Part shown: piece after piece, positions 1,509-31,184 of the stretch
How positions within the stretch are numbered: position 1 is the stretch's first letter
How the letters are laid out: every line of letters starts with the position of its first letter
Virus record (IMG/VR): IMGVR_UViG_3300034175_000204
Location: 1-52,382 of that record
DNA: 52,382 bases
Reading direction: 5' to 3' (one strand)
Source: a virus
Taxonomy: Duplodnaviria > Caudoviricetes
Position numbers and translations under genes: made by a program
The notes under the pieces: model-generated
Told to the model about the DNA's origin: nothing
What the model saw: only the letters and a program-made list of their open reading frames with translations
Database searches by the model: none

Positions 1509-3046
1509 CTCGGGTCTCCCATGAGCCCAGGCGCGAGGCCCAGCTTCTTGTGGTGGTCGGAGATCAGCTCGGCCGCCTTTAGCTCGGCCACGCGGCCGCT
1601 GAAGGCACCGCCGGTCGGGACCATGTTGGCGAGTGCGGCGAGCTGCTGACGCGTGACAGGCCGCGGGTGGACGTCGGCCATGAGTTTGAGCAGCCGGCCG
1701 GCAGCGCCAAGGCGCTGGGCCCACCAAGCGACTAGCGCAGGGCCGGGCTCAGGCATTGACGGCACCGATCCGCCTGCCGCGGCGACGCCACTGTCAGTGG
1801 CGTACCAGCGGCCGTCGCGGCGCTCGATCCAGCCCGCTTCGACGAAGCGCCGACGACGGGCGTTCCACGCGCCGCCTTTGCGACTGTAGCCCGCACGTGC
1901 CGCCCATGCCGCCTCGGTCAAGCCGGCCGGGTGGATGGCCGCGAGGGTGCCGAGCGCGCCGAAATCGGAAGCGGACGCCCGAGCCGTCGCCCGGGCGTCC
2001 TCAACGGCGGACGTCGCCTCCGTGCCCTCCGCCGCTGTCCCGGAATCGGGTTCGGCACCCGAAACTGCATCGCTGGAATGCATGTTTGCATTCCCCGCCA
2101 GCGCCTCCTCGAGGCGCGCCACCCGCTCGAGCAACTGCTCCCATGCTCGAGGAGATGTGGCTTCTGCCTCGGCGATCGGATCGGCTGGCCCCTTTCCGGC
2201 GGCGAGGGCCTCCGCCAACGCGGCGAAGTCGACATCGGCGAGCGCCTGGGGCTCGGCTGCGTCGACGCCGGCGATCGGCGCGGCCGAGCTGTCGAAGGTC
2301 GTCAGCGCCGGAGAGCAGCCGCGCTCGAGCACGCTTTCGACCGGGCTGTAGACCCAGCGCTCGCCGCGCTTCAGCCCCGCAAGTGAGCCGAGGACCTGTT
2401 TGCGGGTCGCAGCATCCGCGTGGCTCTTCAGATATCGGTCGATCGGCGCCTGATCTTGCGGTGCGATCAGCCGGTGGATCACCATCGTCTGCGCCAGCGC
2501 GAGCACCGACTTGGCGATGTCGGCCGGCCGCTGGGTGATGACGGTCAGCACGAAGCCGCGGATGCGGCCGCGCTTCGCGATCCACGCGAGCGCCCGCCTC
2601 AGCTGGAACGCGTCGCTGTCTGGTACCAGCTCGGGCGCGAGCTCGTCGGCCTCATCGATGACGAGGTGCAGGTTGCCGATCGACTTGGTCCGCATTCGGG
2701 AGATGAAGGCGAGCGAAAAGGCGCGCTGCTCCTCCTCGTCCATCTCGCTGAGGTCGAGGATGGCCGAAACGCGCTGATCTATTAGCAGCTCGGCAACGCG
2801 CACGCCGTCGTCGGCGTCGATCGGCGCGTTCGCGTGCAGACCTCCGAAGATCGGGATGCGCACACCCGGGCCGTCGCCGGCGGCGTTCGACTGCATGCCC
2901 CACCACGCGCCGGTCGGATCGAGCACCACCACCTGGCGACCATCGACTAGCAGCTGCTCGACATAGCCCTTGCCGGTGACCGTCTTGCCGGCGCCAGTGG
3001 TGCCGACGATCGCCGTGTGCGTCTCGAGGAAGGCTGGGACGCTCAC
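1505..3046 (-). CDS. HerA/FtsK-like (DUF87) P-loop ATPase with C-terminal winged-helix-like repeats
   Basis: Walker A GTTGAGKT, VVLDPTG, Walker B LVIDEA, KRGRIRG, ITQRPA; GTG start at 3046 coupled to the upstream stop. Confidence 0.8.
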   Translation of the reverse strand: MSVPAFLETHTAIVGTTGAGKTVTGKGYVEQLLVDGRQVVVLDPTGAWWGMQSNAAGDGPGVRIPIFGGLHANAPIDADDGVRVAELLIDQRVSAILDLSEMDEEEQRAFSLAFISRMRTKSIGNLHLVIDEADELAPELVPDSDAFQLRRALAWIAKRGRIRGFVLTVITQRPADIAKSVLALAQTMVIHRLIAPQDQAPIDRYLKSHADAATRKQVLGSLAGLKRGERWVYSPVESVLERGCSPALTTFDSSAAPIAGVDAAEPQALADVDFAALAEALAAGKGPADPIAEAEATSPRAWEQLLERVARLEEALAGNANMHSSDAVSGAEPDSGTAAEGTEATSAVEDARATARASASDFGALGTLAAIHPAGLTEAAWAARAGYSRKGGAWNARRRRFVEAGWIERRDGRWYATDSGVAAAGGSVPSMPEPGPALVAWWAQRLGAAGRLLKLMADVHPRPVTRQQLAALANMVPTGGAFSGRVAELKAAELISDHHKKLGLAPGLMGDPS

Positions 3047-3261
3047 GCCAGGGCACCCGCGGCGATCATCGCCGATACCGTGATCTCGGCGGTCATGCGC
3101 GGGCGAACGTCGCCGGGCGCGCCGATTCCCACGACGCCAAGCACCTGCGGAGAGACGTCGACCTGGGTGAAGATCACTGGATCGATTTCGGACACCCATC
3201 GGCCGAGCAGATCGACCAGCGCGCGGCGGCGAAGATCCTGATACGTCTTGGCCGCGTTCAC
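3043..3261 (-). CDS. Hypothetical protein
   Basis: Translationally coupled ORF in the leftward operon. Confidence 0.55.
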   Translation of the reverse strand: MNAAKTYQDLRRRALVDLLGRWVSEIDPVIFTQVDVSPQVLGVVGIGAPGDVRPRMTAEITVSAMIAAGALA

Positions 3262-3542
3262 GCCCGCCGCCTCACGGCGAAGCCCAGGCGGCGGCGCGCT
3301 GCTCCATTCCGAAGGGTGCGGCCCCGAGGTCCAGCTTCACGATCGGACGCGGTGCCGCCGCCCCGGGGCTCGAGGCTCGGGGCTCGGGGCTCGGGGCTCG
3401 GGGCTCGGGGCTCGGGGCTCGGGGCTCGGGGCTCGGGGCTCGGCGGGGACGTCGCCGGTGGCGCGGCTGCGTCAAGCCCCAGCCGCCGGCGCTGCCACGG
3501 TGCGAGCTGGCGGCGCGCGATGCGGACGCGCAGCGCGCTCAC
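3258..3542 (-). CDS. Hypothetical protein containing a heptamer tandem repeat (SPEPRAP)n
   Basis: Start and stop coupled to its neighbours. Confidence 0.45.
   Translation of the reverse strand: MSALRVRIARRQLAPWQRRRLGLDAAAPPATSPPSPEPRAPSPEPRAPSPEPRAPSLEPRGGGTASDREAGPRGRTLRNGAARRRLGFAVRRRA
3364..3440. repeat. Tandem repeat (CGGGGCT)x11, unit 2 is CGAGGCT
   Basis: 77 bp read directly from the sequence. Confidence 0.95.
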
Positions 3543-13696: not shown

Positions 13697-13854
13697 GCGA
13701 GCCGGCGCAGCGGCGAGGCGGCAGCCGTTCGCCGCTGCGCCCCGATCGCCAGGTGACGTTCCGGCTTGGCTGGGTGCATGTCGAGGCGGCCGCGCTGGGG
13801 CTGGCGATGCTCGCGTCGGCGATCGTCGCGGTCATGGGCTGGCTCGATGTGTAA
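13693..13854 (+). CDS. Small membrane protein
   Basis: GTGA overlap; C-terminal TM segment. Confidence 0.45.
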   Translation: MSEPAQRRGGSRSPLRPDRQVTFRLGWVHVEAAALGLAMLASAIVAVMGWLDV

Positions 13855-14464
13855 CCGCGCGCGCAACCGGGCCGAGCCGGAGACGCTGTTCGCGACCTTC
13901 GGCGGCGGGTGGCTGAGCGACAAGCCGATGGACAACCGGTTCAACCCGGTCGAGCTGGTGCCGCGCGGCCGGGCCTATGTCGTTCGGCGCGAGAGCGGGG
14001 CGATCGGCGTCGACGTCATGAGCTGGGATTTGCTCGGCGGCAGCGCGGCCTATCCCATCACCAACGTGCGCGACCTGAAGCGATGGCGGCCGCGGCTGGA
14101 GAAGCCGGAGGGCCGGTGCATCATTCCGCTCACCGAGTTCTGCGAGTGGACGCCGGATAAGCACGACATCGGCGGCGGCAAGCCGATCAAGGGCGAGATG
14201 TGGTTCGACGTCGTCGACCAGGACGTGTTCGCTGTTGCGGGCGTGTGGCAGCAGCTGGGCGACAAGCGCTGGTTCGCGATGCTGACGTGCGACGCGAACC
14301 CGCTGGTCGAGCCGATCCATCCGAAAGCGATGATCACGATCCTGGCGCCGGAGGATCACGAGCGTTGGCTGACCGGGAGCTACGACGACGTCCTGGCGCT
14401 GCAGCGGCCGTATCCGGCCGAGGCGATGACGGTGCGGGGGCCGGTGTTTCCGACGCGAGAATAA
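13847..14464 (+). CDS. SOS response-associated peptidase (SRAP/YedK/HMCES)
   Basis: N-terminal MCNR, RCIIPLTEFCEW, FAVAGVW, IHPKAMITIL. Confidence 0.9.
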   Translation: MCNRARNRAEPETLFATFGGGWLSDKPMDNRFNPVELVPRGRAYVVRRESGAIGVDVMSWDLLGGSAAYPITNVRDLKRWRPRLEKPEGRCIIPLTEFCEWTPDKHDIGGGKPIKGEMWFDVVDQDVFAVAGVWQQLGDKRWFAMLTCDANPLVEPIHPKAMITILAPEDHERWLTGSYDDVLALQRPYPAEAMTVRGPVFPTRE

Positions 14465-14489
14465 TCGACCCGCACGTTCGAAATAGCGC

Positions 14490-14546
14490 TTGCAAGGACC
14501 GGAAAGCGGTCTTATACAGTTCTCACGGCGGGCGACGGGCCCGCCG
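14490..14546 (+). promoter_or_regulatory. Sigma70 promoter with an inverted-repeat operator and a 5'UTR hairpin
   Basis: TTGCAA-N17-TATACA; GACCG-N5-CGGTC in the spacer; CGGCGGGC-GACGG-GCCCGCCG at 14526-14546. Confidence 0.65.
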
Positions 14547-14567
14547 ACCTCCAGATGGAGACGGACG

Positions 14568-14807
14568 ATGACGCAGACCGACACCACCACCATCGACTTT
14601 AACGCCATCGACTATGCAGCGACGGCAGCGGCGATCGCGCGGTATCTGACCGGCTTGGATGCTTGGGGCCAGGAGGGGCAGACGGGATCGCTGATGCGCG
14701 GCATCTGCGCCGACGTGCTGGCTGCCAAATATGTCCTGGATGCCGACGTGATCGGCAACAGCTTCGTGGGCTGGACACGGCACCGCGGTCTCTTGGTGGC
14801 GGCGTGA
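14568..14807 (+). CDS. Small hypothetical protein (candidate anti-defence)
   Basis: GGAG RBS; first gene after the promoter. Confidence 0.6.
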   Translation: MTQTDTTTIDFNAIDYAATAAAIARYLTGLDAWGQEGQTGSLMRGICADVLAAKYVLDADVIGNSFVGWTRHRGLLVAA

Positions 14808-15127
14808 TCCGCCGGAAAAGACCATATCGCCGGCTCGCTCTGAAGATTGCGCCGGATGCCATCGGCTGGACGCTGATGAACGCCACGCCCCCACCCCATG
14901 CGCTGACCCGCGCGGCGATCGATGGCGATCCCATTGAGGCACTGCTGGAGAAAGCGGCGCAGGGCCGGGCGGCAGGGGCGCGGAGCATCTTTCTGTACCG
15001 TTATTCGCGCGAGACGTTCGGGATGCGTCGCAACGGGATGACCTTCCACGAGCACGAGGCCCTGATCCCGCGCGCTGTAATCGCGCTTCATGATGCAGGT
15101 TACACGGTCGATTTCGAGGACGTATGA
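14804..15127 (+). CDS. Hypothetical protein resembling the C-terminal domain of the downstream Aca2/YdiL-like protein
   Basis: GTGA coupling; manual alignment. Confidence 0.6.
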   Translation: MIRRKRPYRRLALKIAPDAIGWTLMNATPPPHALTRAAIDGDPIEALLEKAAQGRAAGARSIFLYRYSRETFGMRRNGMTFHEHEALIPRAVIALHDAGYTVDFEDV

Positions 15128-15513
15128 TGACGCCAGCCGAACTCGACACGCGCCGCCGCATGCTCGGCTTGTCTGTGGACGAGACTGCGGCGCTTTGCGG
15201 GGTGCAGGATCGCCAGATCCGGCGGTGGCAGTCGGGAGCGCAGCCGATCGCGCGCGACGTGCCGGCGAGGCTGGAGGCGCTGGAGGAAGCGATGGAGCAC
15301 GCCGTCGAAGAGATCGTCGCACTTGCGACCGACAAGGTGCTGGATGGGCCTGTCACCCTGTGGCGATACCGCACGGCGGCGGACCAGGCGCAGAGTCCGA
15401 ACGCGCGCGGCATCCCGCTTGGCGCCCACGCGATGCTTACCGCCTGGGCGGCGGATGCGCTGGCAGCCGAAGGGATCGACGTGACCATCGAATGGGCAAG
15501 CGTCGATGCCTGA
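15124..15513 (+). CDS. Aca2/YdiL (DUF1870)-like HTH regulator
   Basis: MTPAELDTRRRMLGLSVDETAALCGVQDRQIRRWQSG..PI..DV...L; LWRY motif. Confidence 0.7.
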   Translation: MMTPAELDTRRRMLGLSVDETAALCGVQDRQIRRWQSGAQPIARDVPARLEALEEAMEHAVEEIVALATDKVLDGPVTLWRYRTAADQAQSPNARGIPLGAHAMLTAWAADALAAEGIDVTIEWASVDA

Positions 15514-15548
15514 TCATCGTCTAGCGTCCCGCGTGATGATACGGAACC

Positions 15549-15590
15549 TGTCGCGTGACACTTGACGAATAGGCGTTGCCGTGCGACACA
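15549..15590 (+). promoter_or_regulatory. higBA promoter/operator
   Basis: Palindrome TGTC-GCGT-GACA, related site TGCCGTGCGACA, -35 TTGACG. Confidence 0.55.
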
Positions 15591-15596
15591 AGGTGC

Positions 15597-15884
15597 ATGG
15601 AAATCGCGAGCATCACCCACAAGGCGCTCCGCCGATTCGCCGAGACAGGCTCGACCAAGGGCCTGCCTTCGGAGTTCGTCGGGCGTCTGACCGGCATGCT
15701 TGCGTTCCTTGCGGACGCGGGATCCATCGAGACGCTCAAGCTGCCGCCCAATTACGGGGCGCACGAGCTGAAGGGCGACCGGGCGGGCACATGGTCGCTG
15801 ATCGTCTCACGCAACTGGCGCATGACATTCGGCCTCGACGAGGTCGGAGCGATCGTCGATCTGGACTTGGAGGATTATCACTGA
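15597..15884 (+). CDS. higB: HigB (RelE/ParE-family) toxin
   Basis: I.SI.HKALRRF...H.LKGDRAGTWSLIVSRNWRMTF...DLEDYH. Confidence 0.9.
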   Translation: MEIASITHKALRRFAETGSTKGLPSEFVGRLTGMLAFLADAGSIETLKLPPNYGAHELKGDRAGTWSLIVSRNWRMTFGLDEVGAIVDLDLEDYH

Positions 15885-16186
15885 TGGGCATCACGCTTCA
15901 CTGGTCGATCGCGGTTCATCCCGGCGACTGGCTTAAGGCCGAGATCGTAGAGCCGCACGGCCTTAGCGTCACCGACGCGGCGGGGCTGCTCCATGTATCG
16001 CGCCAGGCGCTCAGCACGCTGCTGAACGGCCGCGCAGACTTGTCGCCCGCAATGGCGATCCGGTTCGAAAAGGTGTTCGGCATCGATGCCGACACGCTTT
16101 TGCGAATGCAGACCCGATGGGACATCAAGCAGGCGCGCGAGCACCAGGACGAGATCATCGTCGAGCGCTCGCTGGTTGCGGCGTGA
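15884..16186 (+). CDS. higA: HigA antitoxin
   Basis: HPGDWLKAEI...VSRQALSTLLNGRADLSPAMAIRF. Confidence 0.9.
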   Translation: MGITLHWSIAVHPGDWLKAEIVEPHGLSVTDAAGLLHVSRQALSTLLNGRADLSPAMAIRFEKVFGIDADTLLRMQTRWDIKQAREHQDEIIVERSLVAA

Positions 16187-16373
16187 TCGCACACGCCGAC
16201 GTAAGGTAAGCGGGTATCGGCGGGGTACCGGTGCCCGGACGCGCTGCCCGACCCACGCATTTCCGCGGCTCCACTCGACCGTGGCGGAGGGGTTATCCGC
16301 CGCGGTTGCATGGCCGCTTTCCTACAGTTCTCAATTCACGCTATGTTCCGATGCGGGGGTGTAGCGAAGACTG

Positions 16374-16751
16374 ATGGGAGCGCCTTTTCGTCCAGTAGCA
16401 CCAGCCGCACCGCTTCGCCGCGACGAGGTGCTCGCGTTCCTCGTCGAGCGGATCGCGCGAACCGGCATCTGCCCGACCATCGCGGACGTCGCCGCGGGAA
16501 TGGAGCTCAGCAACGCGCGTGTGCGCGAGCTCGTCGGGCAGCTGGTCGAGCGCGGCATCATCGAGAAGACGCCAGGAGCGCAGCGCAACCTGCGCGTGCG
16601 CGACGTCGCGCATTCGCGATCGATCGTCATGCAGACGATGCTGCGGCTTGGCTGGCCGATCGCTGAGCCGATGGGCGCGCTGCAGCAGCCCTGCCCGAAA
16701 GAGCAGCTACCGATCATGCCGCCGTTCGAGCATCTGCCCGACTTCGACTAG
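16374..16751 (+). CDS. LexA DNA-binding-domain protein without peptidase domain
   Basis: RRDEVLAFL...TGICPTIADVA....LVERGIIEKTPGAQRNL. Confidence 0.75.
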   Translation: MGAPFRPVAPAAPLRRDEVLAFLVERIARTGICPTIADVAAGMELSNARVRELVGQLVERGIIEKTPGAQRNLRVRDVAHSRSIVMQTMLRLGWPIAEPMGALQQPCPKEQLPIMPPFEHLPDFD

Positions 16752-16765
16752 GACAGGACACTTCC

Positions 16766-17500
16766 ATGCCGTTGCTCAACCTCCCTCCCGACACCGCAGC
16801 CTTCTGCTCCCGCGTCCTGAAGGTCGCGCAGTCCGCGCAGAGGGATCACGTCGATCGCGAGCGCCAGCGATTCGAGCATCTCGTCCTAGGCCGACCGCGG
16901 CCAAAACCAGAACCGGCGGCCGCCCCGAAGCGCAAACGGGGATCGCGGCGAGTGGCGGTCCGGGGCGCCGCCGGCGAGCCGGCGGTGCTCGCGCCGGGCG
17001 TCGAGGAGCGGGTCGCACTGCGCGAGCGCTGGTCGCACAAGCGCGAGGGAACCCCGGAGACCCACGATCATGCCGAAAATGCGCGTGCTCGCCCCGGGTC
17101 GATCGCGCGGCTCTATGCGAGCGCGGCGATCGACGACGACCAGCTCGCCGCTGCGCATGAGATCGTCGAGGCATACCGTGCGATCACGGCCTGCGTAGCG
17201 ATCCGTACCGCCAGCCTGGAGGCCCGGGTCGACGGTGGCGCGCACGGCCGGGCGGAGACGCAGGCACTGGCCGCGATCCGCGCGGATTTCGCCTATGACT
17301 GGTGGCGAAGCGCCATCGGGAGTTCAGTCGAGGCACTCCTGGGAGTGATCGTCCACGACGTCGGGCTGACGATCGTCGCCAGGCGGCACGGGATGAGCAT
17401 GCCGCGGGCGCGGCGGATGCTGACCGAGGCGCTGGACCTCTGGTGGGTTGGCCGAGGGCGGACTCGGCGCGCAGCGATCGCCGCGCTCGGCGAGGGCTAG
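16766..17500 (+). CDS. Putative late regulator/antiterminator-like protein (DUF6456-type)
   Basis: LYAS.AIDDDQLAAA motif, C-terminal HTH, position upstream of late genes. Confidence 0.55.
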   Translation: MPLLNLPPDTAAFCSRVLKVAQSAQRDHVDRERQRFEHLVLGRPRPKPEPAAAPKRKRGSRRVAVRGAAGEPAVLAPGVEERVALRERWSHKREGTPETHDHAENARARPGSIARLYASAAIDDDQLAAAHEIVEAYRAITACVAIRTASLEARVDGGAHGRAETQALAAIRADFAYDWWRSAIGSSVEALLGVIVHDVGLTIVARRHGMSMPRARRMLTEALDLWWVGRGRTRRAAIAALGEG

Positions 17501-18925: not shown

Positions 18926-19546
18926 ATGGATTTGGCGGGATACAGACCGACGCTGAGTGAAGTGGCGGCGCTCTTCGGCAAGTCGTCGCGCTGGATATCC
19001 GACCTGCGTGCCAAGGGTGAACTGCCCGGAGATGGTGGTTCGCTCGGCGAGTTCGTCGCGGCCTGGACGAGCCTGTCGGCGGGGTCCAGCGGCGGCAAGT
19101 CGATCGATCAGCACAAGGCGCGGCTCGCCGCGGCGAAGGCCGACCAGGCGGAGATGAAGAACGCGCAGACGCGCAGCGAACTGTTGCCGCGCACGCTGGT
19201 GACGCTTGCGGTCCAGAGCGCCTTCGCCCGGGTTCGCTCCAAGCTGCTCGCGATGCCGAGCCGGTGCGCCCCGCAGATCGTGTCGATGAAGTCGGCGGTC
19301 GCGATCGAGGCGAAGCTGACGGAGCTCGTCCATGAAGCGCTTGCCGAACTCGCGGCCACGACGGTCGGGGTTGAAGAAGCGGGCGCTGATCGCGGTAATC
19401 GCGATGCACCTGGTGGCGAGCCAGGAGCTGGCGGCGACGGCGACGGACTGGTGGCCGGTGATGACACCGCCGCCGCGGCTGACCGTGAGCCAGTGGGCGG
19501 ACGGGAACAGGATCCTAAGCCCGGAAGGCGCCGCCGAACCGGGTAA
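18926..19546 (+). CDS. terS: Terminase small subunit (Nu1-like)
   Basis: N-terminal wHTH, KARLAAAKADQAEMKN..EL, RSKLLAMP. Confidence 0.8.
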   Translation: MDLAGYRPTLSEVAALFGKSSRWISDLRAKGELPGDGGSLGEFVAAWTSLSAGSSGGKSIDQHKARLAAAKADQAEMKNAQTRSELLPRTLVTLAVQSAFARVRSKLLAMPSRCAPQIVSMKSAVAIEAKLTELVHEALAELAATTVGVEEAGADRGNRDAPGGEPGAGGDGDGLVAGDDTAAAADREPVGGREQDPKPGRRRRTG

Positions 19547-21377
19547 GTGGGATACCTCCCGCGCTGAGTATCAGCGCGGGATCATGGACGCGGTCGCCGA
19601 GCCGCTGAATGACGAAGTTGTCGTGATGAAGTCCGCCCAGGTCGGGTGGACCGAGATCATCGGCAACATTGTCGGCTATTTCGTCGACCAGGACCCGGCA
19701 TCGATCCTGGTCGTCCAGCCGACGCTCGACATGGCGGAGGCTTGGTCGAAGGACCGGCTGGCCCCGATGGTGCGCGACACCGCGTGTCTTACGAAGAAGA
19801 TCTCGGACGCCAAGTCGCGCGACAGCGGCAACACCGTCCTGCACAAGAAGTTCGCCGGCGGGCAGCTGACGATCGCCGGGGCGAACAGCCCGGCTAGCCT
19901 CGCGTCGCGGCCGATCCGTGTCGTGCTTGCGGACGAAGTCGGGCGCTACCCGGCGTCGGCTGGGACCGAGGGCGACCCGCTCACGCTGGCGTACAAGCGG
20001 ACGAACAATTTCTGGAACCGCCGCAAGCTGGCGGGGTCGACGCCGGGGATCGCGGGCGTCTGCCGGATCGAGGCGAAATACCTCGAGAGCGACCAGCGCC
20101 GCTTCTTCGTGCCATGCCACGCCTGCGGCGCGGTCCAGGTGCTCCGCTGGGACCGGGTTCGCTGGGAGAAGACGAAGGCCGGCGCACACCGGCCAGAGAC
20201 GGCGCGGTATCATTGCGAGCATTGCGAGGAGCCCTGGGACGACGCCGATCGCGGCGGCGCAGTTCGTCTAGGCGAGTGGCGTGCCACCGCACCGTTCAAG
20301 GGGATCGCGGGCTTCCACGTCTGGGAGGCCTATTCGCCCTGGGTAAAGCTCGGCGACACGGTGAAGGCATTCCTCGAAGCGAGGAAGTCGCCGGAGACGC
20401 ACAAGGTCTGGGTCAATACCGCGCTCGGCGAGACCTGGGTCGAAAAGGGCGAGGCGCCCGACTGGCAGCGGCTGTACGACCGGCGGGAGACGAGCATGGC
20501 GCTCGGGACACCACCGGACTGGGCGGCGCTGCTGGTCGCCTCGTGCGACGTGCAGCGCGGCGGCGGCGGGCGCATCGAGTGCGACATCTGGGCGTTCGGG
20601 GCCGGCCGCAAGCGGGCGCTGGTCGAGCATATCGAGATCGACGGTGCAATCGCCGAGGCGGTCACCTGGGCGCAGCTGGACACGGTGGTCGCGCGCGACT
20701 GGATCACGGCCGACGGCCGATCGCTGAAGCTGACCCGGGTCGGGGTCGATTCGGGCGATGGCGAGAACACCATGCACGTCTATGCCTGGTGCCGTCGCCA
20801 CACGGGCCTGGCGATGGCGCTGAAGGGGCGGGACACGCTGTCGGCGGCGCAGGCGATCGCCGGGCCGACCTGGGTCGACGTGACGCTCGCGGGGCGCAAG
20901 CTCCGCAAGGGCGTGCGGCTCTGGACGGTCGGCACGTCGATGCTGAAGACCGAGATCTACGGCGACCTGCAGCTGGAGCGCCCGGTCGACGGGGAGAGCT
21001 TTCCAGACGGTTACATCTTCCTGCCGGACGGCACGTCAGACGAGTGGGTCAAGCAGCTGGTCGCGGAGCAGCTGATCCTGGTGCGGAACAAGCGGACCGG
21101 GCGCACCCGACGCGAGTGGCAGCAGACGCGGCCGCGCAACGAAGCGCTCGACAATGCGGTGTACGCGCGGGCGATCGCGATCAGCCTGGGCGTCGACCGG
21201 TGGACCGAGGCGAAATGGGCGCAATTGCTCGGGGCGCGGCGGGTGGCGGCCGCGAGGCCGGTGCGGGTCCAACCGGAACCAGCCGAAGTGGTGGCGGCCG
21301 AAGCGGCGACCGCGGCCTCGGCCGCAAAGATCAATCGACTGACGGGCCGCGCACGCGGCTCGTTCCTGAGGAGGTAG
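19404..21377 (+). CDS. terL: Terminase large subunit (lambda gpA family); start approximate
   Basis: PPRLTVSQWAD, KSAQVGWTE, LADEV, STP, SDQRRFFVPC, RNEALD. Confidence 0.95.
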   Translation: MHLVASQELAATATDWWPVMTPPPRLTVSQWADGNRILSPEGAAEPGKWDTSRAEYQRGIMDAVAEPLNDEVVVMKSAQVGWTEIIGNIVGYFVDQDPASILVVQPTLDMAEAWSKDRLAPMVRDTACLTKKISDAKSRDSGNTVLHKKFAGGQLTIAGANSPASLASRPIRVVLADEVGRYPASAGTEGDPLTLAYKRTNNFWNRRKLAGSTPGIAGVCRIEAKYLESDQRRFFVPCHACGAVQVLRWDRVRWEKTKAGAHRPETARYHCEHCEEPWDDADRGGAVRLGEWRATAPFKGIAGFHVWEAYSPWVKLGDTVKAFLEARKSPETHKVWVNTALGETWVEKGEAPDWQRLYDRRETSMALGTPPDWAALLVASCDVQRGGGGRIECDIWAFGAGRKRALVEHIEIDGAIAEAVTWAQLDTVVARDWITADGRSLKLTRVGVDSGDGENTMHVYAWCRRHTGLAMALKGRDTLSAAQAIAGPTWVDVTLAGRKLRKGVRLWTVGTSMLKTEIYGDLQLERPVDGESFPDGYIFLPDGTSDEWVKQLVAEQLILVRNKRTGRTRREWQQTRPRNEALDNAVYARAIAISLGVDRWTEAKWAQLLGARRVAAARPVRVQPEPAEVVAAEAATAASAAKINRLTGRARGSFLRR

Positions 21378-21378
21378 C

Positions 21379-21597
21379 ATGGCGACCTACACCGCTGCCG
21401 ACCTCGCCAAGATCCGCGCGTGCATCGCCTCTGGCGTCATGCGCACCCGCTTCGCCGACGGCCGGGAAGTGGCATACCAGAGCCTGGACCAGTTGCTCGC
21501 GGCCGAGAAGGTGATCGCGGCGCAGGTCGAGGTCGCCGCGACAGCGACCAGCGGCATCGTCCGGCGCAAGTTCGGCGCGTTCCGGAGCGGGTGCTGA
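21379..21597 (+). CDS. gpW-like head-tail joining protein
   Basis: IASGV...FADGREVAYQSLDQL; between terL and portal. Confidence 0.8.
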   Translation: MATYTAADLAKIRACIASGVMRTRFADGREVAYQSLDQLLAAEKVIAAQVEVAATATSGIVRRKFGAFRSGC

Positions 21598-23069
21598 TGG
21601 CCAAGCGACCGCTGCTCGACCGCGCGATCGGCGCGCTCGCTCCAGGCTGGGCGCTCGAGCGCGAGCGCGCTCGCTTCAAGCTGACCCGGGTGGAGAAGGC
21701 GCGCGCCGAATATGACGGGGCGACGAAGGGGCGGCGCGCCGAGGGCTGGCGGCGACGCGGGACCGACGCCAACAGCGAGATCGGCCGCGCCCAGAAGACG
21801 CTGCGGGATACCGCGCGCGATATGGTGCGGAACAACGGCTACGCCTCGCGCGCCGTTGCGGTGCTGGCGGCGAACACGATCGGCACCGGCATCACCTTTC
21901 AGGTGAAGCGTAACGGCAAGGTCGACGAGCGGCTGCAGGCGATTGCCAAGGCGCACCTCGAGTCGACCGCCATCGATGCGGACGGCCGCAGCGACCTCTA
22001 CGGGCTGCAGCTGATCGCCTTCCGCGCGGTGGTCGAGAGCGGGGCGGCGATCGTGCGGTATCGCCAGCGCCGGACGTCGGACGGGCTGACGCTGCCGTTC
22101 CAGCTCCAGGTTCTGGAGCCGGATTACCTGGACGATCGAAAGCACGGCAAGACGTCGGGCGGATCGTATATCTACGGGGTCGAGTTCGACGGGATCGGGC
22201 GCCGGAACGCCTATTGGCTCTTCACCGACCACCCGGGTAGCTCGATCGCCACGACAATCGGATCGAAGCCGACGCCGGCGCGCGACGTCATCCACGTGTT
22301 TCGCGGCGACCGGCCTGGTCAGCAGCACGGCGTCACCTGGTTCGCGCCAGTCATCCTGCGCGCGCGGGACTTCGCGGACTTCGAGGATGCGGAACTCATC
22401 CGGCAGAAGCTCGCTGCCTGCCACGTAGGCGTCGTCCACGGCGAGACCGACGCGGAGGTCGGCAGCGAGCCGTTCGATGTCATGGAGCCGGGCGCGATCT
22501 GGCACGCGCCGGACGGGCGCGACGTCACCTTCAACTCGCCGCCGCAGAACAACAGCTACGGCGAGTTCACCAAGGTTTCGCTGCGGGCGATGTCGGTTGG
22601 CATGAACGTGGCGGCGCACTCGCTGACCGGCGATCTCTCCGACCTCAACTTCTCCTCCGGCCGGCTCGGCTGGCAAGACGACCAGCGCCAGATCAACAGC
22701 TGGCAGTGGCAGATGTTCATGCCGCAGTTTTGCGGCGGCGTCGGCGGCTGGCTGATCCGCAATTTCGAGCTGACGGGCGAGAATGTCGACGGCGTCACCG
22801 TGGACTGGACGCCGCCACGCCGCGAGATGCTCAACCCGCCCGAGGACGTCAAGGCGAACCGCGACGCGATCCGCTCCGGCCAGAAGAGCTGGAGCCAGGT
22901 CATTCGCGAGGGCGGCGACGATCCGGACCAGGTGGCGGCCGAACTGGCGGGCGATCTCGAACGCTTCGACGAGCTCGGGCTCATCCTCGACTGCGACCCG
23001 CGCCGGGTGACCTCGGTCGGCAATCCGACCGATCCGACCGGCGGCGACGCCTCCAACAAGGACGCCTGA
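21597..23069 (+). CDS. Lambda-family portal protein
   Basis: ARDMVRNN, QLQVLEPDYL, GVEFD, RPGQ, LTGDLS..NFSSGR. Confidence 0.95.
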   Translation: MAKRPLLDRAIGALAPGWALERERARFKLTRVEKARAEYDGATKGRRAEGWRRRGTDANSEIGRAQKTLRDTARDMVRNNGYASRAVAVLAANTIGTGITFQVKRNGKVDERLQAIAKAHLESTAIDADGRSDLYGLQLIAFRAVVESGAAIVRYRQRRTSDGLTLPFQLQVLEPDYLDDRKHGKTSGGSYIYGVEFDGIGRRNAYWLFTDHPGSSIATTIGSKPTPARDVIHVFRGDRPGQQHGVTWFAPVILRARDFADFEDAELIRQKLAACHVGVVHGETDAEVGSEPFDVMEPGAIWHAPDGRDVTFNSPPQNNSYGEFTKVSLRAMSVGMNVAAHSLTGDLSDLNFSSGRLGWQDDQRQINSWQWQMFMPQFCGGVGGWLIRNFELTGENVDGVTVDWTPPRREMLNPPEDVKANRDAIRSGQKSWSQVIREGGDDPDQVAAELAGDLERFDELGLILDCDPRRVTSVGNPTDPTGGDASNKDA

Positions 23070-25133
23070 ATGGCTGAACTCCTGATCTACGGGATCGTCG
23101 GCGACAGCTGGGACGGTCTCGACGCGGCGACGCTCGTGCCCGCGATCGCGGCGGTCGACGGCGACCTCGACGTACGCATCAACTCGCCGGGCGGTTACGT
23201 CATGGACGGGCTGGCGATCGTCAACGCGCTCGCACGGCACAAGGCGAAGGGTCATAAGGTCACCTGCCACGTCGACGGGCTTGCCGCGTCGATGGCGTCC
23301 GTGCTCGCCGTCGTCGGCACCGACGTCGTCATGGCCGACAACGCGCTGATGATGATCCACAACCCGTGGACCTGCGCGTGCGGCGACGCCGCCGAGCTGC
23401 GCCAGGAGGCCGACAAGCTCGACCTGCTGCGCGACCAGATCGTCAAGCTCTACACCGCGCGAACAGGTCTGACGGCCGAACAGCTGCAGCCGATGCTCGA
23501 GGCCGAGACCTGGCTGACGTCGGAGCAAGCGCTCGCGCAGAAGTTCGTAACCGCGATCGCGCAGGCGCTGCCGGCGGTCGCCGCCTCGTTCGTGAAGCCC
23601 TTCGGGTTCCGCAAGGCCCCCGAGACCCCGTTGATCTCGCCGGTGGCGATGTCGCGGACCCCCAGGACGGCCGACGCCGCTCCGCCCACTCGCCAGGAGA
23701 ATTCCATGTCCCAGGAAACCCCGGGCGGCGGCAATCCGACGCCGCCGACCACGCCGACCTCGCCGACCAACGCGCCCGACGCCCAGGCAATCGCCACCCA
23801 GGCCGTCGCAGCGGAGCGCACGCGCGCTGCCAGCATCCGGACGGCCGTGAACAAGGCGGGTCTGCGCACCGATTTCGCCGAGGAGATGGTCAATGCCGGC
23901 ACCTCGATCGAGGATGCGCGCGCCAAGATCATCGACAAGCTGGCGGACGCGAATGACGCGACCACTCCGCGCAACCAGGCGCCGATCGCGGTCGGCACCG
24001 AGGCGCGCGAGAAGATGCTCGTCGGCGCGCGCAACGCGCTTCTCGCCCGCGCCGGGCTGACTGGCCTGGTCGCGGCGGCGGCGTCGAAGAAGAAGGAGAC
24101 GATCGACCTGGATCCCGGCGAGTTCCGCGGCATCCGCAACGTCGAGCTCGCACGCATGTCGCTGGAGATGGCGGGGATCTCGTGCCGGAGCTATGACCGC
24201 GACAAGATCGTCGGGGATGCACTGACCGCGCGCAACGCGATCACGCAGACGACCAGCGACTTCCCGCTGCTGCTCGAGAACGTGATGCACAAGGTGCTGC
24301 AGGCCGCCTATGCGCTGGCGCCCGACACCTGGTCGCGCGTCTGCGGCATCGGCTCGGTGAACGATTTCCGCCCGCACAACCGCTATCTGCGGGGCACGTT
24401 CGGCGCGCTCGACCGGGTCAACGAGGCCGGCGAGTTCAAGAACAAGCCGATTCCGGACGCCGCCAAGGAGCTGATCTCGGCGCTGACGAAGGGCAACATC
24501 ATCGCGCTTTCGCGCCAGGCGATCGTGAACGACGACATGGACGCCTTCTCGGGGCTGACCGTCGACCTCGGCCGCGCGGCGAAGCTGTCGATCGAGATCG
24601 ACTTCTACGCGCTGCTGGCGCTCAACGCGGGGCTGGGCCCGGTGATGAACGACGGCAAGACGTTCTTCCATGCGGATCATGGCAATATCGCGGTCGCCGG
24701 GGCACCTTCGGTCGCGGCGTTCGACGCACTTCGCGTTCTGATGGCACGTCAGAAGGACGTGAGCGGCAACGAGTTCCTCGACATCCGGCCGGCCGTCGGC
24801 CTGTTCCCCGTCGAGTTGGGCGGCGCCGCGCGCACGATCAACGACGCGCAGTATGACCCCGACACGGTCAACAAGCTGCAGCGGCCGAACATGGTGCGCG
24901 GCATGTTCTCCGACATCGTCGACACGCCGCGGCTTTCCGGGGCGCCCTGGTACGGCTTTGCCGACCCGGACGTCGCGCCAGCGGTCGAGGTCGTGTTCCT
25001 CAACGGGGAGCAGGAGCCGTTCCTGGACACGCAGGAGGGCTGGCGCGTCGACGGGACCGAGATGAAGGTCCGCCATGATTACGGCGTCGGCGCGGTCAAC
25101 TCGCGCTCCGCCGCGCGCAACGCGGGCGGGTAA
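23070..25133 (+). CDS. ClpP-like prohead protease/major capsid fusion
   Basis: INSPGG, GLAASMAS, MIHNPW; TTSDFP.LL, SRQAIVNDD. Confidence 0.92.
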   Translation: MAELLIYGIVGDSWDGLDAATLVPAIAAVDGDLDVRINSPGGYVMDGLAIVNALARHKAKGHKVTCHVDGLAASMASVLAVVGTDVVMADNALMMIHNPWTCACGDAAELRQEADKLDLLRDQIVKLYTARTGLTAEQLQPMLEAETWLTSEQALAQKFVTAIAQALPAVAASFVKPFGFRKAPETPLISPVAMSRTPRTADAAPPTRQENSMSQETPGGGNPTPPTTPTSPTNAPDAQAIATQAVAAERTRAASIRTAVNKAGLRTDFAEEMVNAGTSIEDARAKIIDKLADANDATTPRNQAPIAVGTEAREKMLVGARNALLARAGLTGLVAAAASKKKETIDLDPGEFRGIRNVELARMSLEMAGISCRSYDRDKIVGDALTARNAITQTTSDFPLLLENVMHKVLQAAYALAPDTWSRVCGIGSVNDFRPHNRYLRGTFGALDRVNEAGEFKNKPIPDAAKELISALTKGNIIALSRQAIVNDDMDAFSGLTVDLGRAAKLSIEIDFYALLALNAGLGPVMNDGKTFFHADHGNIAVAGAPSVAAFDALRVLMARQKDVSGNEFLDIRPAVGLFPVELGGAARTINDAQYDPDTVNKLQRPNMVRGMFSDIVDTPRLSGAPWYGFADPDVAPAVEVVFLNGEQEPFLDTQEGWRVDGTEMKVRHDYGVGAVNSRSAARNAGG

Positions 25134-27971: not shown

Positions 27972-30900
27972 ATGCAAGCATTGCTGGCATCGCTCGTCTT
28001 TTCGATGAGCGTGAAGGACGAGGCGTTCAAGGCCGGCATGGCGCAGGCGCGCGTCGAGGCGAAGAAGACCGACCAGGACTTCGAGCGGTCGGGTAAAGGA
28101 ATGGCGGCGTCGATCCAGCACGCCGCACGTGTCGTCGACCAGGCGGCGGTGGGGATCGTGGACAGTCTGGCAAACGTCGGCCGCCAGGTCCGCAACGCGG
28201 GCCTGGCGCTCACTGTCGGGCTGACGGTGCCGCTCGGACTAATCGGCAAGGGTGCGAAGGACACCGCGTCGGACTTTCAATCGGCGATGGGCAAGGTCAA
28301 CGCGGCGATGGTGAATGCCAGCCCAGCGCAGATAGAGAAGCTGCGCGCCGCGGCGCTGGAGCTGGGCCCGGCGTTCGGCAAGAGTGCTATCGACGCAGCC
28401 GGCGCGATCGAATCGCTCGCCAAGAACGGCATGAGCGCCGCCGACATTCTGAGCGGCGGGCTGACCAGCGCTCTGAAGCTGGCCATCGTAGGTGAGACGG
28501 ATCTCGGTTCTGCGGCGGACGCTACGACGGATATCATCGCGCAGTTTGGCAAATCGGCTAGTGATCTGCCTCGGATCGTCGATCGCGTCACCGGCGCGCT
28601 TGGCGAGTCCAAGCTGTCGATGGACGATTATCGGCTGGCATTAGGGCAGGCTGGAGGAACGACCGGCAATCTCGGTTACAGCTTCGAGGATCTGAACGTG
28701 GCGCTCGCCGCCACGGCGTCCAGCTTCGAAGGTGGATCGCAGGCCGCCACTTCCTTCCGATCCTTTCTGACCTCCCTGGCGGGGAAGTCGGAGGCATCTG
28801 TCCGGACGATGAACCAGCTGGGACTGTCTTTCTACAAAGCCAATGGCAGTGCACGCGGACTGACCGACATTGCGGAGCAACTGCGTACCAAACTTGGTCA
28901 GCTCAATGACGAAAGCCTTCAGGATGCCGTCAACAACATGTTCGGCACCGACGGCGGGCAGACTGCGCTGGCCTTGATGAGCGAAGGTGCCGAAGGCATC
29001 GAGAAGATGCGCGCCGCGATCGACAAGGTCACCGCGGACGAGAAGATGAAGATCCTGCTCGACGGCGAGGCGCACGCGACGCAGCGGCTGGCGAGCGCGT
29101 GGGAGCGCCTGGGGATCGCGATCGGCGACGCCGGCCTGATCCAAGTGATGACGGCAATCAAGCAAGCCACCGCGTCGGTCATCGAGACGATCGCCAAAGC
29201 GCCACCGGCGTTGTTCTATATGGTGGTGGCCCTTGGCGCCGTAGCGGGTTCGATCGGGCCGGTGATCCTCGGTCTGGCCGCGATCGTCGGAGCGGCGGCA
29301 CCGTTTCTGGTCGGCATGACCAGACTGGGTGTCGCCGCCCGGGTGCTGATTGGCGCGCTTGGCACGCTGGTCAATCCGATCGGCATGGTTGGGCGGATGC
29401 TGGCGCAGATGGCGATCGCGGCGGGCGGCGCGATGATCATCGGACGCCTCGGCACGGCGATGCTCGGACTTGCTGGACCGATCGGGCTGGCGATCACCGC
29501 ACTGACCATCCTCGTTCCTTGGATCACCCGCGCCGGGCAAGCATCCGACGCTGCCCGGGAAGCGGTCGAGCAGGGTCGTGACGCCGAAATGAAGGCGGTC
29601 GACGCGAAGAACCAACTGGCGACCGCGACAGGCAAGCTGCGGGTGCAACTGCTCGCCAAGGCGAAGGCCGATCAGGTTGCCGCACACGCAGCGATGAGGG
29701 CGGCTCAGGCCGACATGCAGGCGGCTCGCGCCACGTACGAGCGGGCGAAGGCCAATTCCGCTACCAAACCGCGCCTGGCGGCGGCGACGGTGGTGTCGAC
29801 GGCACTGATCGCGGGCGGGCTCGACCCGGCAAACGCCATCGGAAACTCGGAGCAGCTCAGAAATCGCCAAGTCGCCGACGCGACGGCCGATTTCCAGACG
29901 CGCATCGATGCGCTCGATGGCCGCATTAAGACGCTCGCTGCATGGAATGCCGCCGTGTCTGCTCCCGCGCCGGCAGCCAAGATCGACATGAACTTCGCCG
30001 ACCCGGCGAAAACCAAGCCGTCCAAAGGCCGCGACAGATCGCAGGACGAGTCGAACTACCTCGACGAACTGGGCCGCAGCCGCGTGGCGCAGTTGCAAGC
30101 GCAGGCCGAGGAGACCCAGGGCATTCAGGCGCGGTATCGCGCCGAAATGACAGAGCTCGACGAAGAGCGGGCATCGTATCAACGCGGCCTTGCCGCCGAC
30201 GAGGGCCTGACCGCAGCCAGGCGCGCGACGCTGCTTGCCGAAAAGGACAAGGAACTCGTCATCCGCCGCGGCATCGCGGAGGATACGCGGTTCGATGCCG
30301 ACGCGCAGCGCGACTACGACCTCGCGCGCGCCACCAACGATGCGCAGCAGGACATCCTTCGCGCGACGCTCGACCTCGCGGACAACCTCAGCGACCGACG
30401 CGTCGGCGAACTGCGGCTGATCGCGCTCCAGCGCCGGCAGGAAGAGGCCGACCTTGAGCTGATCCTGGCGACCAAGGCAACCAGCTCGGCCGAGTGGCAA
30501 AATGCCGCTGACCGCAAGCGCGATCTTGACGGCGTCTATGCCGCCAAGCGCGTCGACGCCGTTCGCAGGACCGAGACGCCGGTGGAGAGCTACATGCGCA
30601 CGCTCAACCGTTCCGCGACCGCGATCTCGGAGGATGTCCAGAGCATCGGCGTCTCGGCGCTCCAAGACATGAACAGCCAGCTGACCGATGCGGTCATGAA
30701 CGCAAAGTCGTTGGGCGACGCCTTTGCGAACATGGGCAAGCGGATCATCGCGTCGCTGATCGACATCGCGATTCAGCAGGCGGTGATCAAGCCGCTGGCC
30801 AACGCCTTGTTCGGCGCGGCCGACGCGGACGGCAATCGCAGCGGGGGATCGCTGACCTCGCTCGCGGCGTCGATCGGCAGGGCATTCGGCGGGGGCAAAG

Positions 30901-31184
30901 CTCTCGGCGGCCCGGTGAGCGCCAGCGAATGGTACGTCGTCGGCGAGCGCGGGCCCGAGGTGTTCGCGCCGGGGGTGAGCGGGACGATCATTCCGAACGG
31001 CGGGCGCGGGGCCGGGCCAGCGAGCGGCGGCATCGCGACCATCGTGCCTTCCCCGTATTTCGATGTCGTCGTCGACCGCCGGGTTGTGCGCGGTGCCGGG
31101 CCGATCGCCGAGGCCTCGACCGGTCGCGGGATCGGCAGCGTTCAACGGGCCAATGCGCTGCGCGGACGCCAGGCGCTGGCATGA
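27972..31184 (+). CDS. Tail tape measure protein (TP901-like core)
   Basis: 1070 aa, Ala-rich; ALGGPV..YVVGERGPEVF C-terminus. Confidence 0.92.
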   Translation: MQALLASLVFSMSVKDEAFKAGMAQARVEAKKTDQDFERSGKGMAASIQHAARVVDQAAVGIVDSLANVGRQVRNAGLALTVGLTVPLGLIGKGAKDTASDFQSAMGKVNAAMVNASPAQIEKLRAAALELGPAFGKSAIDAAGAIESLAKNGMSAADILSGGLTSALKLAIVGETDLGSAADATTDIIAQFGKSASDLPRIVDRVTGALGESKLSMDDYRLALGQAGGTTGNLGYSFEDLNVALAATASSFEGGSQAATSFRSFLTSLAGKSEASVRTMNQLGLSFYKANGSARGLTDIAEQLRTKLGQLNDESLQDAVNNMFGTDGGQTALALMSEGAEGIEKMRAAIDKVTADEKMKILLDGEAHATQRLASAWERLGIAIGDAGLIQVMTAIKQATASVIETIAKAPPALFYMVVALGAVAGSIGPVILGLAAIVGAAAPFLVGMTRLGVAARVLIGALGTLVNPIGMVGRMLAQMAIAAGGAMIIGRLGTAMLGLAGPIGLAITALTILVPWITRAGQASDAAREAVEQGRDAEMKAVDAKNQLATATGKLRVQLLAKAKADQVAAHAAMRAAQADMQAARATYERAKANSATKPRLAAATVVSTALIAGGLDPANAIGNSEQLRNRQVADATADFQTRIDALDGRIKTLAAWNAAVSAPAPAAKIDMNFADPAKTKPSKGRDRSQDESNYLDELGRSRVAQLQAQAEETQGIQARYRAEMTELDEERASYQRGLAADEGLTAARRATLLAEKDKELVIRRGIAEDTRFDADAQRDYDLARATNDAQQDILRATLDLADNLSDRRVGELRLIALQRRQEEADLELILATKATSSAEWQNAADRKRDLDGVYAAKRVDAVRRTETPVESYMRTLNRSATAISEDVQSIGVSALQDMNSQLTDAVMNAKSLGDAFANMGKRIIASLIDIAIQQAVIKPLANALFGAADADGNRSGGSLTSLAASIGRAFGGGKALGGPVSASEWYVVGERGPEVFAPGVSGTIIPNGGRGAGPASGGIATIVPSPYFDVVVDRRVVRGAGPIAEASTGRGIGSVQRANALRGRQALA

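Follow-up and report, generated by a model that had tools for sequence, protein, structure and literature searches.

The Aca repressors are regarded as plain autorepressors: after an initial burst of expression, they turn anti-CRISPR genes off. The locus described here raises the question of what a second small protein, resembling one part of such a repressor and encoded in the same operon, might contribute. The stretch of DNA under analysis (hereafter, the window) corresponds to the IMG/VR provirus record IMGVR_UViG_3300034175_000204 (52,382 bp, ~68% G+C), and the protein in question, which we call U, is the 107-residue product of the gene at 14804-15127 on the forward strand. A preliminary description, made from the sequence alone, presented U as a paralogue of the C-terminal domain of the Aca2-like regulator encoded directly downstream, saw no helix-turn-helix (HTH) in it, and suggested that such a partner, consisting of the dimerisation domain only, could heterodimerise with the repressor and tune it in a dominant-negative manner. 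The coordinates and sequences of both genes were given correctly. Here, profile comparison showed that U, over its last ~50 residues, is anciently paralogous to the C-terminal module of the repressor, and we weigh what a protein of this origin might do in a prophage.

The arrangement is that of a prophage operon of the acr-aca type (acr, anti-CRISPR; aca, anti-CRISPR-associated) with three genes, of which U is the middle one and, judging from the overlaps, translationally coupled to its neighbours. The start of U overlaps the stop of a 79-residue gene by 4 nt (GTGA, 14804-14807), and at its other end there is a second 4-nt overlap, between its stop and the ATG of the repressor gene (ATGA, 15124-15127), confirming that U lies directly upstream of the repressor. 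The G+C content of U by codon position (0.68/0.50/0.74) is typical of coding sequence. Public gene calls disagree on its start: some begin at ATG 14877 (83 residues; P0001), dropping a conserved basic N-terminus, whereas one has the full 107-residue protein (P0022). With the GTG at 14804, U begins with 24 N-terminal residues that are conserved among its relatives (RLALKIAPD...AIGW in U, RLAIKMAPD...ALGW in P0019), and on sequence grounds we take this GTG, and not ATG 14877, to be the start of the gene.

U belongs to a very small family. A HMMER search of 1.84 billion representative proteins gave eight matches at E≤0.001, namely the window's own U, a spurious 453-residue repeat protein, which was dropped, and six proteins of 110-126 residues. 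A profile search of a 5.8-billion protein set added two more homologues, while a single-sequence word search of the same set found U itself only. The family as known thus has nine members (the window's protein and eight rare homologues), 107-143 residues in length, and its alignment contains nine invariant columns: M1, G21, P29, L64, F72, G78, H84, L95 and G99. Searches of other collections added little. Using tblastn, U had zero matches in phages and one chance match in plasmids (E 0.5), and the ESM Atlas held no usable match for it. A profile made from a sub-alignment of the family found zero relatives among genome, viral and metagenome contigs; viral-contig searches with three members (P0017, P0024 and P0021) returned only short spurious matches in unrelated proteins (L023-L025), with no match to the family's hidden Markov model (HMM). 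A metagenome search with a further member, P0020, gave its source contig, L006, together with two others (L007 and L008), neither of which was matched by the U HMM. The genomic contexts examined for U were therefore two, the window and L006.

When the two window proteins alone were compared, no relationship emerged. BLASTP of U against the repressor returned no alignment at E≤100; the Smith-Waterman score of the full proteins (26) was reached by 1210 of 2000 shuffles, and that of their C-terminal pieces (25) by 105 of 2000. Taken by itself, such a pairwise alignment could be chance, and significance came only with the relatives. Aligning the U family with the Aca2-like family by hhalign gave a probability of 97.1 (E 7.2e-11) for 7 against 13 sequences, and of 96.6 (E 6e-10, 55 columns) for 9 against 13. 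The latter alignment joined residues 58-107 of U to residues 73-128 of the repressor, exactly the stretch and register that had been aligned by hand in the preliminary description. The tail similarity claimed there stands, then, at the level of families, and does not rise above chance for the pair itself.

The same relationship was recovered with the U-family HMM. Run against a six-frame translation of the whole 52-kb record, it matched only U and the C-terminus of the repressor (15304-15498, E 7.3e-8), and in a second viral record (L004) it matched the homologue of the repressor (E 1.5e-8). With the HMM rebuilt without the window's row, the 13 Aca2-like proteins scored 9.5-33.7 bits (29.9 for the window's repressor), and 12 of the 13 lay above 8.9 bits, the highest score among 2613 controls (shuffled or reversed). 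In the opposite direction, with the U proteins scored by the HMM of the repressor family, six of the nine surpassed the control maximum of 8.6 bits; those below it were the window's U (5.2 bits), P0020 (4.1) and P0024 (7.1). Several members of the U family have C-termini that are visibly repressor-like. These profile scores establish the paralogy for the families as a whole, with the window's copy among the more diverged members.

The U profile matched 13/13 proteins of this alphaproteobacterial-type clade of Aca2-like repressors, and matched neither the actinobacterial DUF1870 proteins (L009 and L010) nor, at E≤10, any solved Aca2/YdiL chain; it therefore appears that U was derived from this clade. 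As had been noted from the sequence, U has no recognisable HTH: none of the nine family members (0/9) matched an HTH family or the Pfam family PF08965 (Aca2_YdiL) at E≤10. A homology of U's N-terminus to the HTH or α1 of the repressor was suggested by hhalign with seven sequences, but was lost with nine and in HMMER, and we rejected it. Accordingly, its sequence places U only as a paralogue of the C-terminal module, and we do not class it as a member of the Aca2/YdiL family.

What, then, occupies the remainder of the protein? The AlphaFold model of U, built from nine sequences and of moderate confidence, has a predicted local distance difference test score (pLDDT) of 80 and a predicted TM score (pTM) of 0.71, with pLDDT 56-80 in the N-terminal third. 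It contains strands at residues 9-15, 19-26 and 35-38, a helix at 43-56, a strand at 59-66, a short helix at 69-72, a long helix at 81-97 and a last strand at 102-106. From the helix at 43 onward, this order (helix, strand, short helix, long helix, strand) is that of the repressor model, whose corresponding elements are H46-71, E77-81, H85-89, H99-115 and E120-124 (H, helix; E, strand), and it matches α4, β1, α5, α6 and β2 of the ZF40 Aca2 protein as given in the available portion of PMC8434428. Upstream of this point, U has strands where the repressor has its HTH. The idea that U consists of a dimerisation domain only could thus not be upheld, as it carries a conserved basic N-terminal region of ~40 residues, predicted to form a three-stranded meander.

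In the model, the three N-terminal strands complete an RNase H-like sheet, in the order β-β-β-α-β-α-β. A Foldseek search of the Protein Data Bank (PDB) with this model gave YqgF/RuvX, RuvC and ribosomal uS11 (E 3e-4 upward, TMq 0.43-0.59 in the top ten), VIA-align over 48,161 chains gave YqgF at Z 8.6 and 8.1, and a BFVD search placed RuvC-like resolvases on top; a Z of ~8, though, lies in the range that the VIA tool describes as common for unrelated models. U shares no sequence similarity with YqgF/RuvX or RuvC and has no conserved catalytic acids, and we read the predicted likeness as one of topology and not of membership. We also considered a nuclease and set it aside, there being no D or E among the invariant columns of the nine-member alignment; on this basis U is unlikely to be a nuclease. 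As to charge, the isoelectric point (pI) is at least 7.96 in 7/9 U proteins, and the first 30 residues, rich in Arg and Lys, are net positive in 9/9. The repressors, on the other hand, have a pI of 5.92 or less in 13/13, such that the charges of the two families are complementary.

The protein downstream of U is, by sequence and predicted fold, a genuine member of the Aca2/YdiL family, as the preliminary description had proposed. It matches PF08965 over residues 2-105 (E 2e-7; 31.6 bits against a cut-off of 23.8), and a profile of the repressor and 12 relatives of 54-74% identity matches the PDB entry of Aca2 7ezy (E 1.5e-7), ZF40 Aca2 (3.7e-5) and YdiL (2e-3). Its AlphaFold model (pLDDT 93) consists of an N-terminal HTH, a long helix and a C-terminal strand-helix-helix-strand module, and agrees over its full length with SO3848 (Z 15.8, 129 residues aligned), ZF40 Aca2 (Z 13.5, 115 aligned), Aca2 7ezy (Z 13.1) and YdiL (Z 12.6), while HTH-only proteins reach Z 10.5 at most. 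It is distant from the solved Aca2 proteins (20-25% identity). A tblastn search with the repressor gave no match in phages, and its matches in plasmids were limited to distant actinobacterial DUF1870 genes, none accompanied by a U gene; a profile search of genome contigs with the repressor alignment found zero relatives.

Upstream of the operon, the leader of ~100 bp carries the kind of signals expected of an Aca2-controlled unit (Table 1). The Aca2 protein represses at a promoter palindrome and also binds hairpins in the 5' untranslated region (5' UTR), blocking the ribosome-binding site (PMC13551039 and PMC8434428, in the parts available). The window's promoter-like site was missed by our consensus scan because its second hexamer ends in A and the scan needs T at position 6; in its first hexamer, the TTG lines up with L004's TTGGCA and L006's TTGACA. 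Searched as a pattern without mismatches, the palindrome in the spacer occurs just once in the window, at 14496-14512, where both strands match. We infer, by analogy to the Aca2 biology in the available text of PMC8434428 and PMC13551039, that the repressor would bind it. Palindromes occupy the equivalent place in both related loci (ATGTCCG-N5-CGGACAT in L004, ATGTACG-N7-CGTACAT in L006).

Two hairpins are predicted in the 5' UTR. The region 14522-14575 folds at -25 kcal/mol (z -2.68), and 2 of 200 shuffles fold as well. The second hairpin pairs the Shine-Dalgarno sequence GGAG (14557-14560), 7 nt before the ATG at 14568, and a comparable pairing is found in L004 (CUCC-ACU-GGAG) and L006 (CTCCATC...GATGGAG). 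We found no further copies of operator or hairpin in the window, and no Rfam 15 family in 14300-15600; the published 'proteo' RNA motif has no model in Rfam 15. A sigma-70 consensus scan of 13800-16800 gave a single match, GTTACA-18-TATGAT at 15099-15128 (1 found against 0.4 expected), which sits at the 3' end of U and ends on the start codon of the repressor. This match may be chance or an internal promoter; if real, it would give separate expression to the repressor, not to U.

Two related loci inform on how this operon is put together. The first, L004, is an IMG/VR viral contig bearing a homologue of the repressor (3001-3378; 66% identical). Its leader is homologous to that of the window by alignment, the local score being 30 against 8.1 +/- 1.4 for shuffles, of which 0/2000 reach it. 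The only gene between leader and repressor in L004 encodes a 64-residue acidic protein (L004:2777-2971) that is a homologue of AcrIC5 (Pfam PF22147, E 2.8e-16); U is absent. These alignments indicate that the cargo between leader and repressor is exchangeable, and that the repressor clade is anti-CRISPR-associated in at least one relative, in which the AcrIC5 homologue lies directly upstream. AcrIC5 was first described beside aca1, and in L004 it appears, by sequence, to be paired with an Aca2-type repressor. Its inhibition of type I-C systems has been validated, and its orthologues are widespread (PMC7913775). A leader-pattern scan of viral contigs gave 12 loci, of which only the L004 contig was related.

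The second locus, L006, is a 4.1-kb metagenome contig encoding P0020, which is 34% identical to U. Here, a 63-residue acidic gene abuts the U homologue, ending at the base that precedes its ATG, and the stop of the U homologue overlaps (ATGA) the start of a 132-residue HTH_3 protein; U thus adjoins an HTH regulator in 2/2 contexts seen. The L006 leader has TTGACA followed by the palindrome, and its similarity to the leader of the window is weak (9 of 2000 shuffles reach the score); the leaders of L004 and L006 are not similar to one another (841 of 2000). Against the Aca2-like profile, the L006 regulator matched in the HTH and long helix only, with 10.6 bits versus a shuffle maximum of 8.5, and so, as far as the profiles reach, paralogy between U and its neighbour's tail is shown only for the clade of the window. 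The first genes of all three operons (window, L004 and L006) are small and acidic, with a pI of 4.1-4.6. Just ahead of its U operon, L006 carries part of an IS1595-family transposase (2277-2876; zinc ribbon and the beginning of the DDE domain), and the L006 operon is therefore also in mobile DNA.

In light of these findings, we favour a reading of U as partner or titrator of the repressor, a proposal from homology and context to which we give somewhat less than an even chance. U itself would not read DNA. Instead, it would contact the repressor through the shared module and its basic N-terminus, either titrating it, as SinI does SinR, or entering a mixed complex with it, and would so alter the amount of active repressor dimer. 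With U and the repressor made from one autorepressed, coupled message, the operon would be shut only once the repressor exceeds U, and U would set a threshold or delay of shut-off for the anti-defence gene(s) upstream. The effect could run in either direction, as relief or as reinforcement of repression. The narrower version, in which U is an HTH-less decoy that titrates an Aca2-type repressor, so that shut-off is thresholded or delayed, we put forward tentatively and hold to be somewhat improbable. In favour of a partner speak the C-terminal homology, the absence of an HTH, the coupling, the kept order of U then regulator, and the opposite charges.

Several observations weigh against a partner. 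Within its family, the window's U is one of those that resemble the repressor least, its 5.2 bits falling short of the 8.6 bits reached by shuffled sequences, and only a G, an H, an L and a G are shared between the modules of U and the repressor; A101, A103, M104 and W108, which are invariant in the repressor's α6, are not kept in U. In the ZF40 Aca2 dimer, the interface is mostly α6 of the C-terminal domain stacked on α1 of the partner's N-terminal domain (PMC8434428, in the part available), and a simple dominant-negative heterodimer hence does not follow from the homology. No robust homology of U to α1 was found, the HMMER matches covering the C-terminal part only, and by analogy U could supply at most the α6 half of such a contact; moreover, in the model, U's own N-terminal strands pack on the shared module and could occupy the partner's surface. 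The 66%-identical repressor of L004 is found without U, the C-terminus of the HTH neighbour in L006 is not detectably U-like (U HMM -0.2 bits), and the adjacency argument draws on two genomic contexts only. As a regulatory device, a decoy produced in constant proportion to its target is also less obvious. A 1:1 complex prediction for the repressor family with the U family, which scored 0.00 in two runs without controls, speaks neither for nor against binding.

The acr-aca type of the operon makes anti-defence cargo a serious rival. U would then be an Acr-like or other counter-defence protein under the repressor's control, its tail reflecting ancestry alone, i.e., a duplicated piece recruited as a scaffold; we consider this possible, with the odds leaning against it. 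U does occupy the position of an acr gene, upstream of an aca-type repressor in a prophage, and L004, with its homologous leader and 66%-identical repressor, has an AcrIC5 homologue upstream. U is also small, and its family is tiny and patchy, with nine sequences in the searches of 1.84 and 5.8 billion proteins; furthermore, uncharacterised genes under predicted Aca1/Aca2 control are treated as anti-defence candidates in the available text of PMC13551039. Yet U matches no known Acr, anti-defence, PHROG or PADLOC family (in Pfam, including AcrIC5 and other Acr families, PHROGs, NCBIfam and PADLOC), and while cargo genes usually shuffle between aca genes, U has stayed next to an HTH regulator in both loci, although the two U proteins share only 34% identity. 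U is basic, whereas the small acidic first genes of the three operons fit cargo better, and the homology to the regulator's own module would be left unexplained. Within the window, position singles out the 79-residue product of the first gene as the strongest candidate for an anti-CRISPR or anti-defence protein. Its codon-position G+C content is 0.60/0.51/0.82; it has no match in Pfam, PHROGs, NCBIfam or PADLOC, bears no similarity to the AcrIC5 homologue at the same position in L004, and in the ESM Atlas has no usable match and a poor model (pTM 0.28). A toxin-antitoxin or defence reading of the U-repressor pair was also considered and found no support in PADLOC.

Alternatively, U could be a nucleic-acid-binding accessory, RNase H-like without a catalytic site, that binds the leader RNA or DNA, or another target, alone or together with the acidic repressor. 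This is suggested by the predicted topology, by the RNase H-like nucleic-acid proteins that top the structural matches in three libraries, and by the Arg/Lys-rich, net positive N-terminus of all nine members; in addition, Aca2 control uses DNA and 5' UTR hairpins (PMC13551039, in the part available), and hairpins of this sort are predicted in the window's leader. Against this, the Z scores are of the size that unrelated models commonly reach, the model stems from nine sequences with an N-terminal third of modest pLDDT, the invariant columns (G21, P29, L64, F72, G78, H84, L95 and G99) hold no acidic or basic residue that would mark a site, and a common fold does not show a function; such a role seems unlikely. 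Lower still stands the possibility that U is what remains, decaying or without function, of a duplicated repressor gene, or that the similarity is due to chance. The lack of significant pairwise similarity in the window and the very small family would fit it, but the profile-level similarity is far above controls, nine intact members of 107-143 residues have conserved columns along the whole protein, codon-position G+C is typical of coding sequence, and synteny and coupling are kept in L006. This explanation is already disfavoured, and we give it little credence.

Were U a partner or titrator, its closest counterpart in logic would be SinI of B. subtilis. The sinI gene lies just upstream of sinR, and SinI expression is under signal control of its own. 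Similar to SinI, U is small, lacks a DNA-binding domain and, by sequence, resembles a module of the neighbouring HTH repressor. As a mimic of SinR's oligomerisation domain, SinI forms a heterocomplex with SinR and so blocks it, and the phage pair AimX/AimC acts alike without homology (bioRxiv 10.1101/2025.11.23.689978, in the part available); SlrA/SlrR is a further system grouped with SinI/SinR. The differences are equally clear: SinI is short and helical, a peptide mimic of a helical hook, whereas U is a 107-residue α/β protein with a conserved N-terminal extra, and the fold of SinR differs from the Aca2/YdiL fold of the window's repressor. Unlike SinI, which is controlled separately from its repressor, U is co-translated with its presumed target in one operon (the ATGA overlap). 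U therefore has the homology to the adjacent repressor's module and the absence of a DNA-binding domain that characterise SinI-type antagonists, without their separately controlled expression.

Among Aca systems, the nearest is acrIF8-aca2 of Pectobacterium phage ZF40 (PDB 7b5j/7vjo), whose repressor has the same fold and Pfam family as the window's and is likewise the last gene of a short phage operon. The window also shares with Aca2 operons a promoter palindrome and hairpins at the ribosome-binding site, here predicted from the sequence; in the portions of PMC8434428 and PMC13551039 available, the operons described have no paralogue of the repressor tail. AcrIF24 and AcrIE10, as far as the sources available describe them, unite regulator and anti-defence function in one evolutionary unit in acr loci. 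Those proteins are fusions that keep the HTH and inhibit Cas complexes, while U is separate, has lost the HTH and has no known inhibitor activity. Searching the literature (subscription papers and supplements aside), we found no report of an Aca-derived HTH-less partner or of an Aca anti-repressor. The preliminary description knew of no such circuit, and for Aca proteins we found none either; the logic itself, though, is already known from SinI/SinR. It is possible, if rather doubtful, that U will prove to be the first anti-Aca or Aca-partner protein.

As for the setting, the right half of the window is a lambda-like morphogenesis block, and the operon sits in the accessory region to its left (Table 1). 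In four DNA runs, contigs carried identical fragments of the locus, with zero variants. Directly downstream of the repressor gene, after a gap of 83 nt, follows a HigB-like/HigA-like pair in which stop and start share one base (TGATG, the A at 15884). The protein with the LexA-type DNA-binding domain is too short to hold the LexA peptidase domain and may be a prophage regulator. In the tail region, a 906-residue protein (34662-37382) contains a PhoD-like phosphatase domain (E 1e-9).

Table 1. Positions of the operon, its leader elements and other annotated features in the window
Feature	Positions	Strand	Remarks
SRAP-domain gene (SOS-response-associated peptidase, YedK-like)	13925-14464	+	just upstream of the operon promoter
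Promoter-like site, TTGCAA (14490-14495), 17-nt spacer, TATACA (14513-14518)	14490-14518	+	read from sequence; putative function
Operator-like palindrome, AGGACCG-N5-CGGTCTT	14495-14513		inside the promoter spacer; 6/7 complementary; core GACCG/CGGTC perfect
5' UTR hairpin 1, CGGCGGGC / GCCCGCCG	14526-14546	+	8 bp, 5-nt loop; inverted repeat and predicted RNA fold; partly conserved in L004
5' UTR hairpin 2, CUCC-AGAU-GGAG	14549-14560	+	predicted fold; unique in the window
Acidic orphan, 79 residues	14568-14807	+	first gene of the operon; pI 4.6
U, basic protein, 107 residues	14804-15127	+	middle gene; GTG start; pI 9.85
Aca2/YdiL-type HTH repressor, 129 residues	15124-15513	+	128 residues from the second ATG; pI 4.6
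HigB-like toxin	15597-15884	+	PF05015, E 1.4e-10
HigA-like HTH antitoxin	15884-16186	+	HTH_3, E 6e-9
Protein with LexA-type DNA-binding domain, 125 residues	16374-16751	+	E 1.7e-7
gpA-type large terminase	19332-21377		
Lambda-family portal	21420-23069		
ClpP-capsid fusion open reading frame	23070-25133		ClpP protease and major capsid, 687 residues
Tape measure protein	27972-31184		

The rarity of the U family, with nine sequences, limits how general any role of U can be. If U were cargo, it would represent a new anti-defence candidate family of unusual origin, and the 79-residue first gene would be a second candidate. If, however, U is indeed a partner of the repressor, it would add a SinI-like layer of control at the protein level, unreported for any Aca family, beyond the translational control that Aca2 exerts at the 5' UTR. 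As the pair is small (107 and 129 residues) and its leader short, this idea can be tested directly, and, if true, it would offer a natural example of how a regulator can give rise to a modulator of itself, through duplication and loss of the part that reads DNA.

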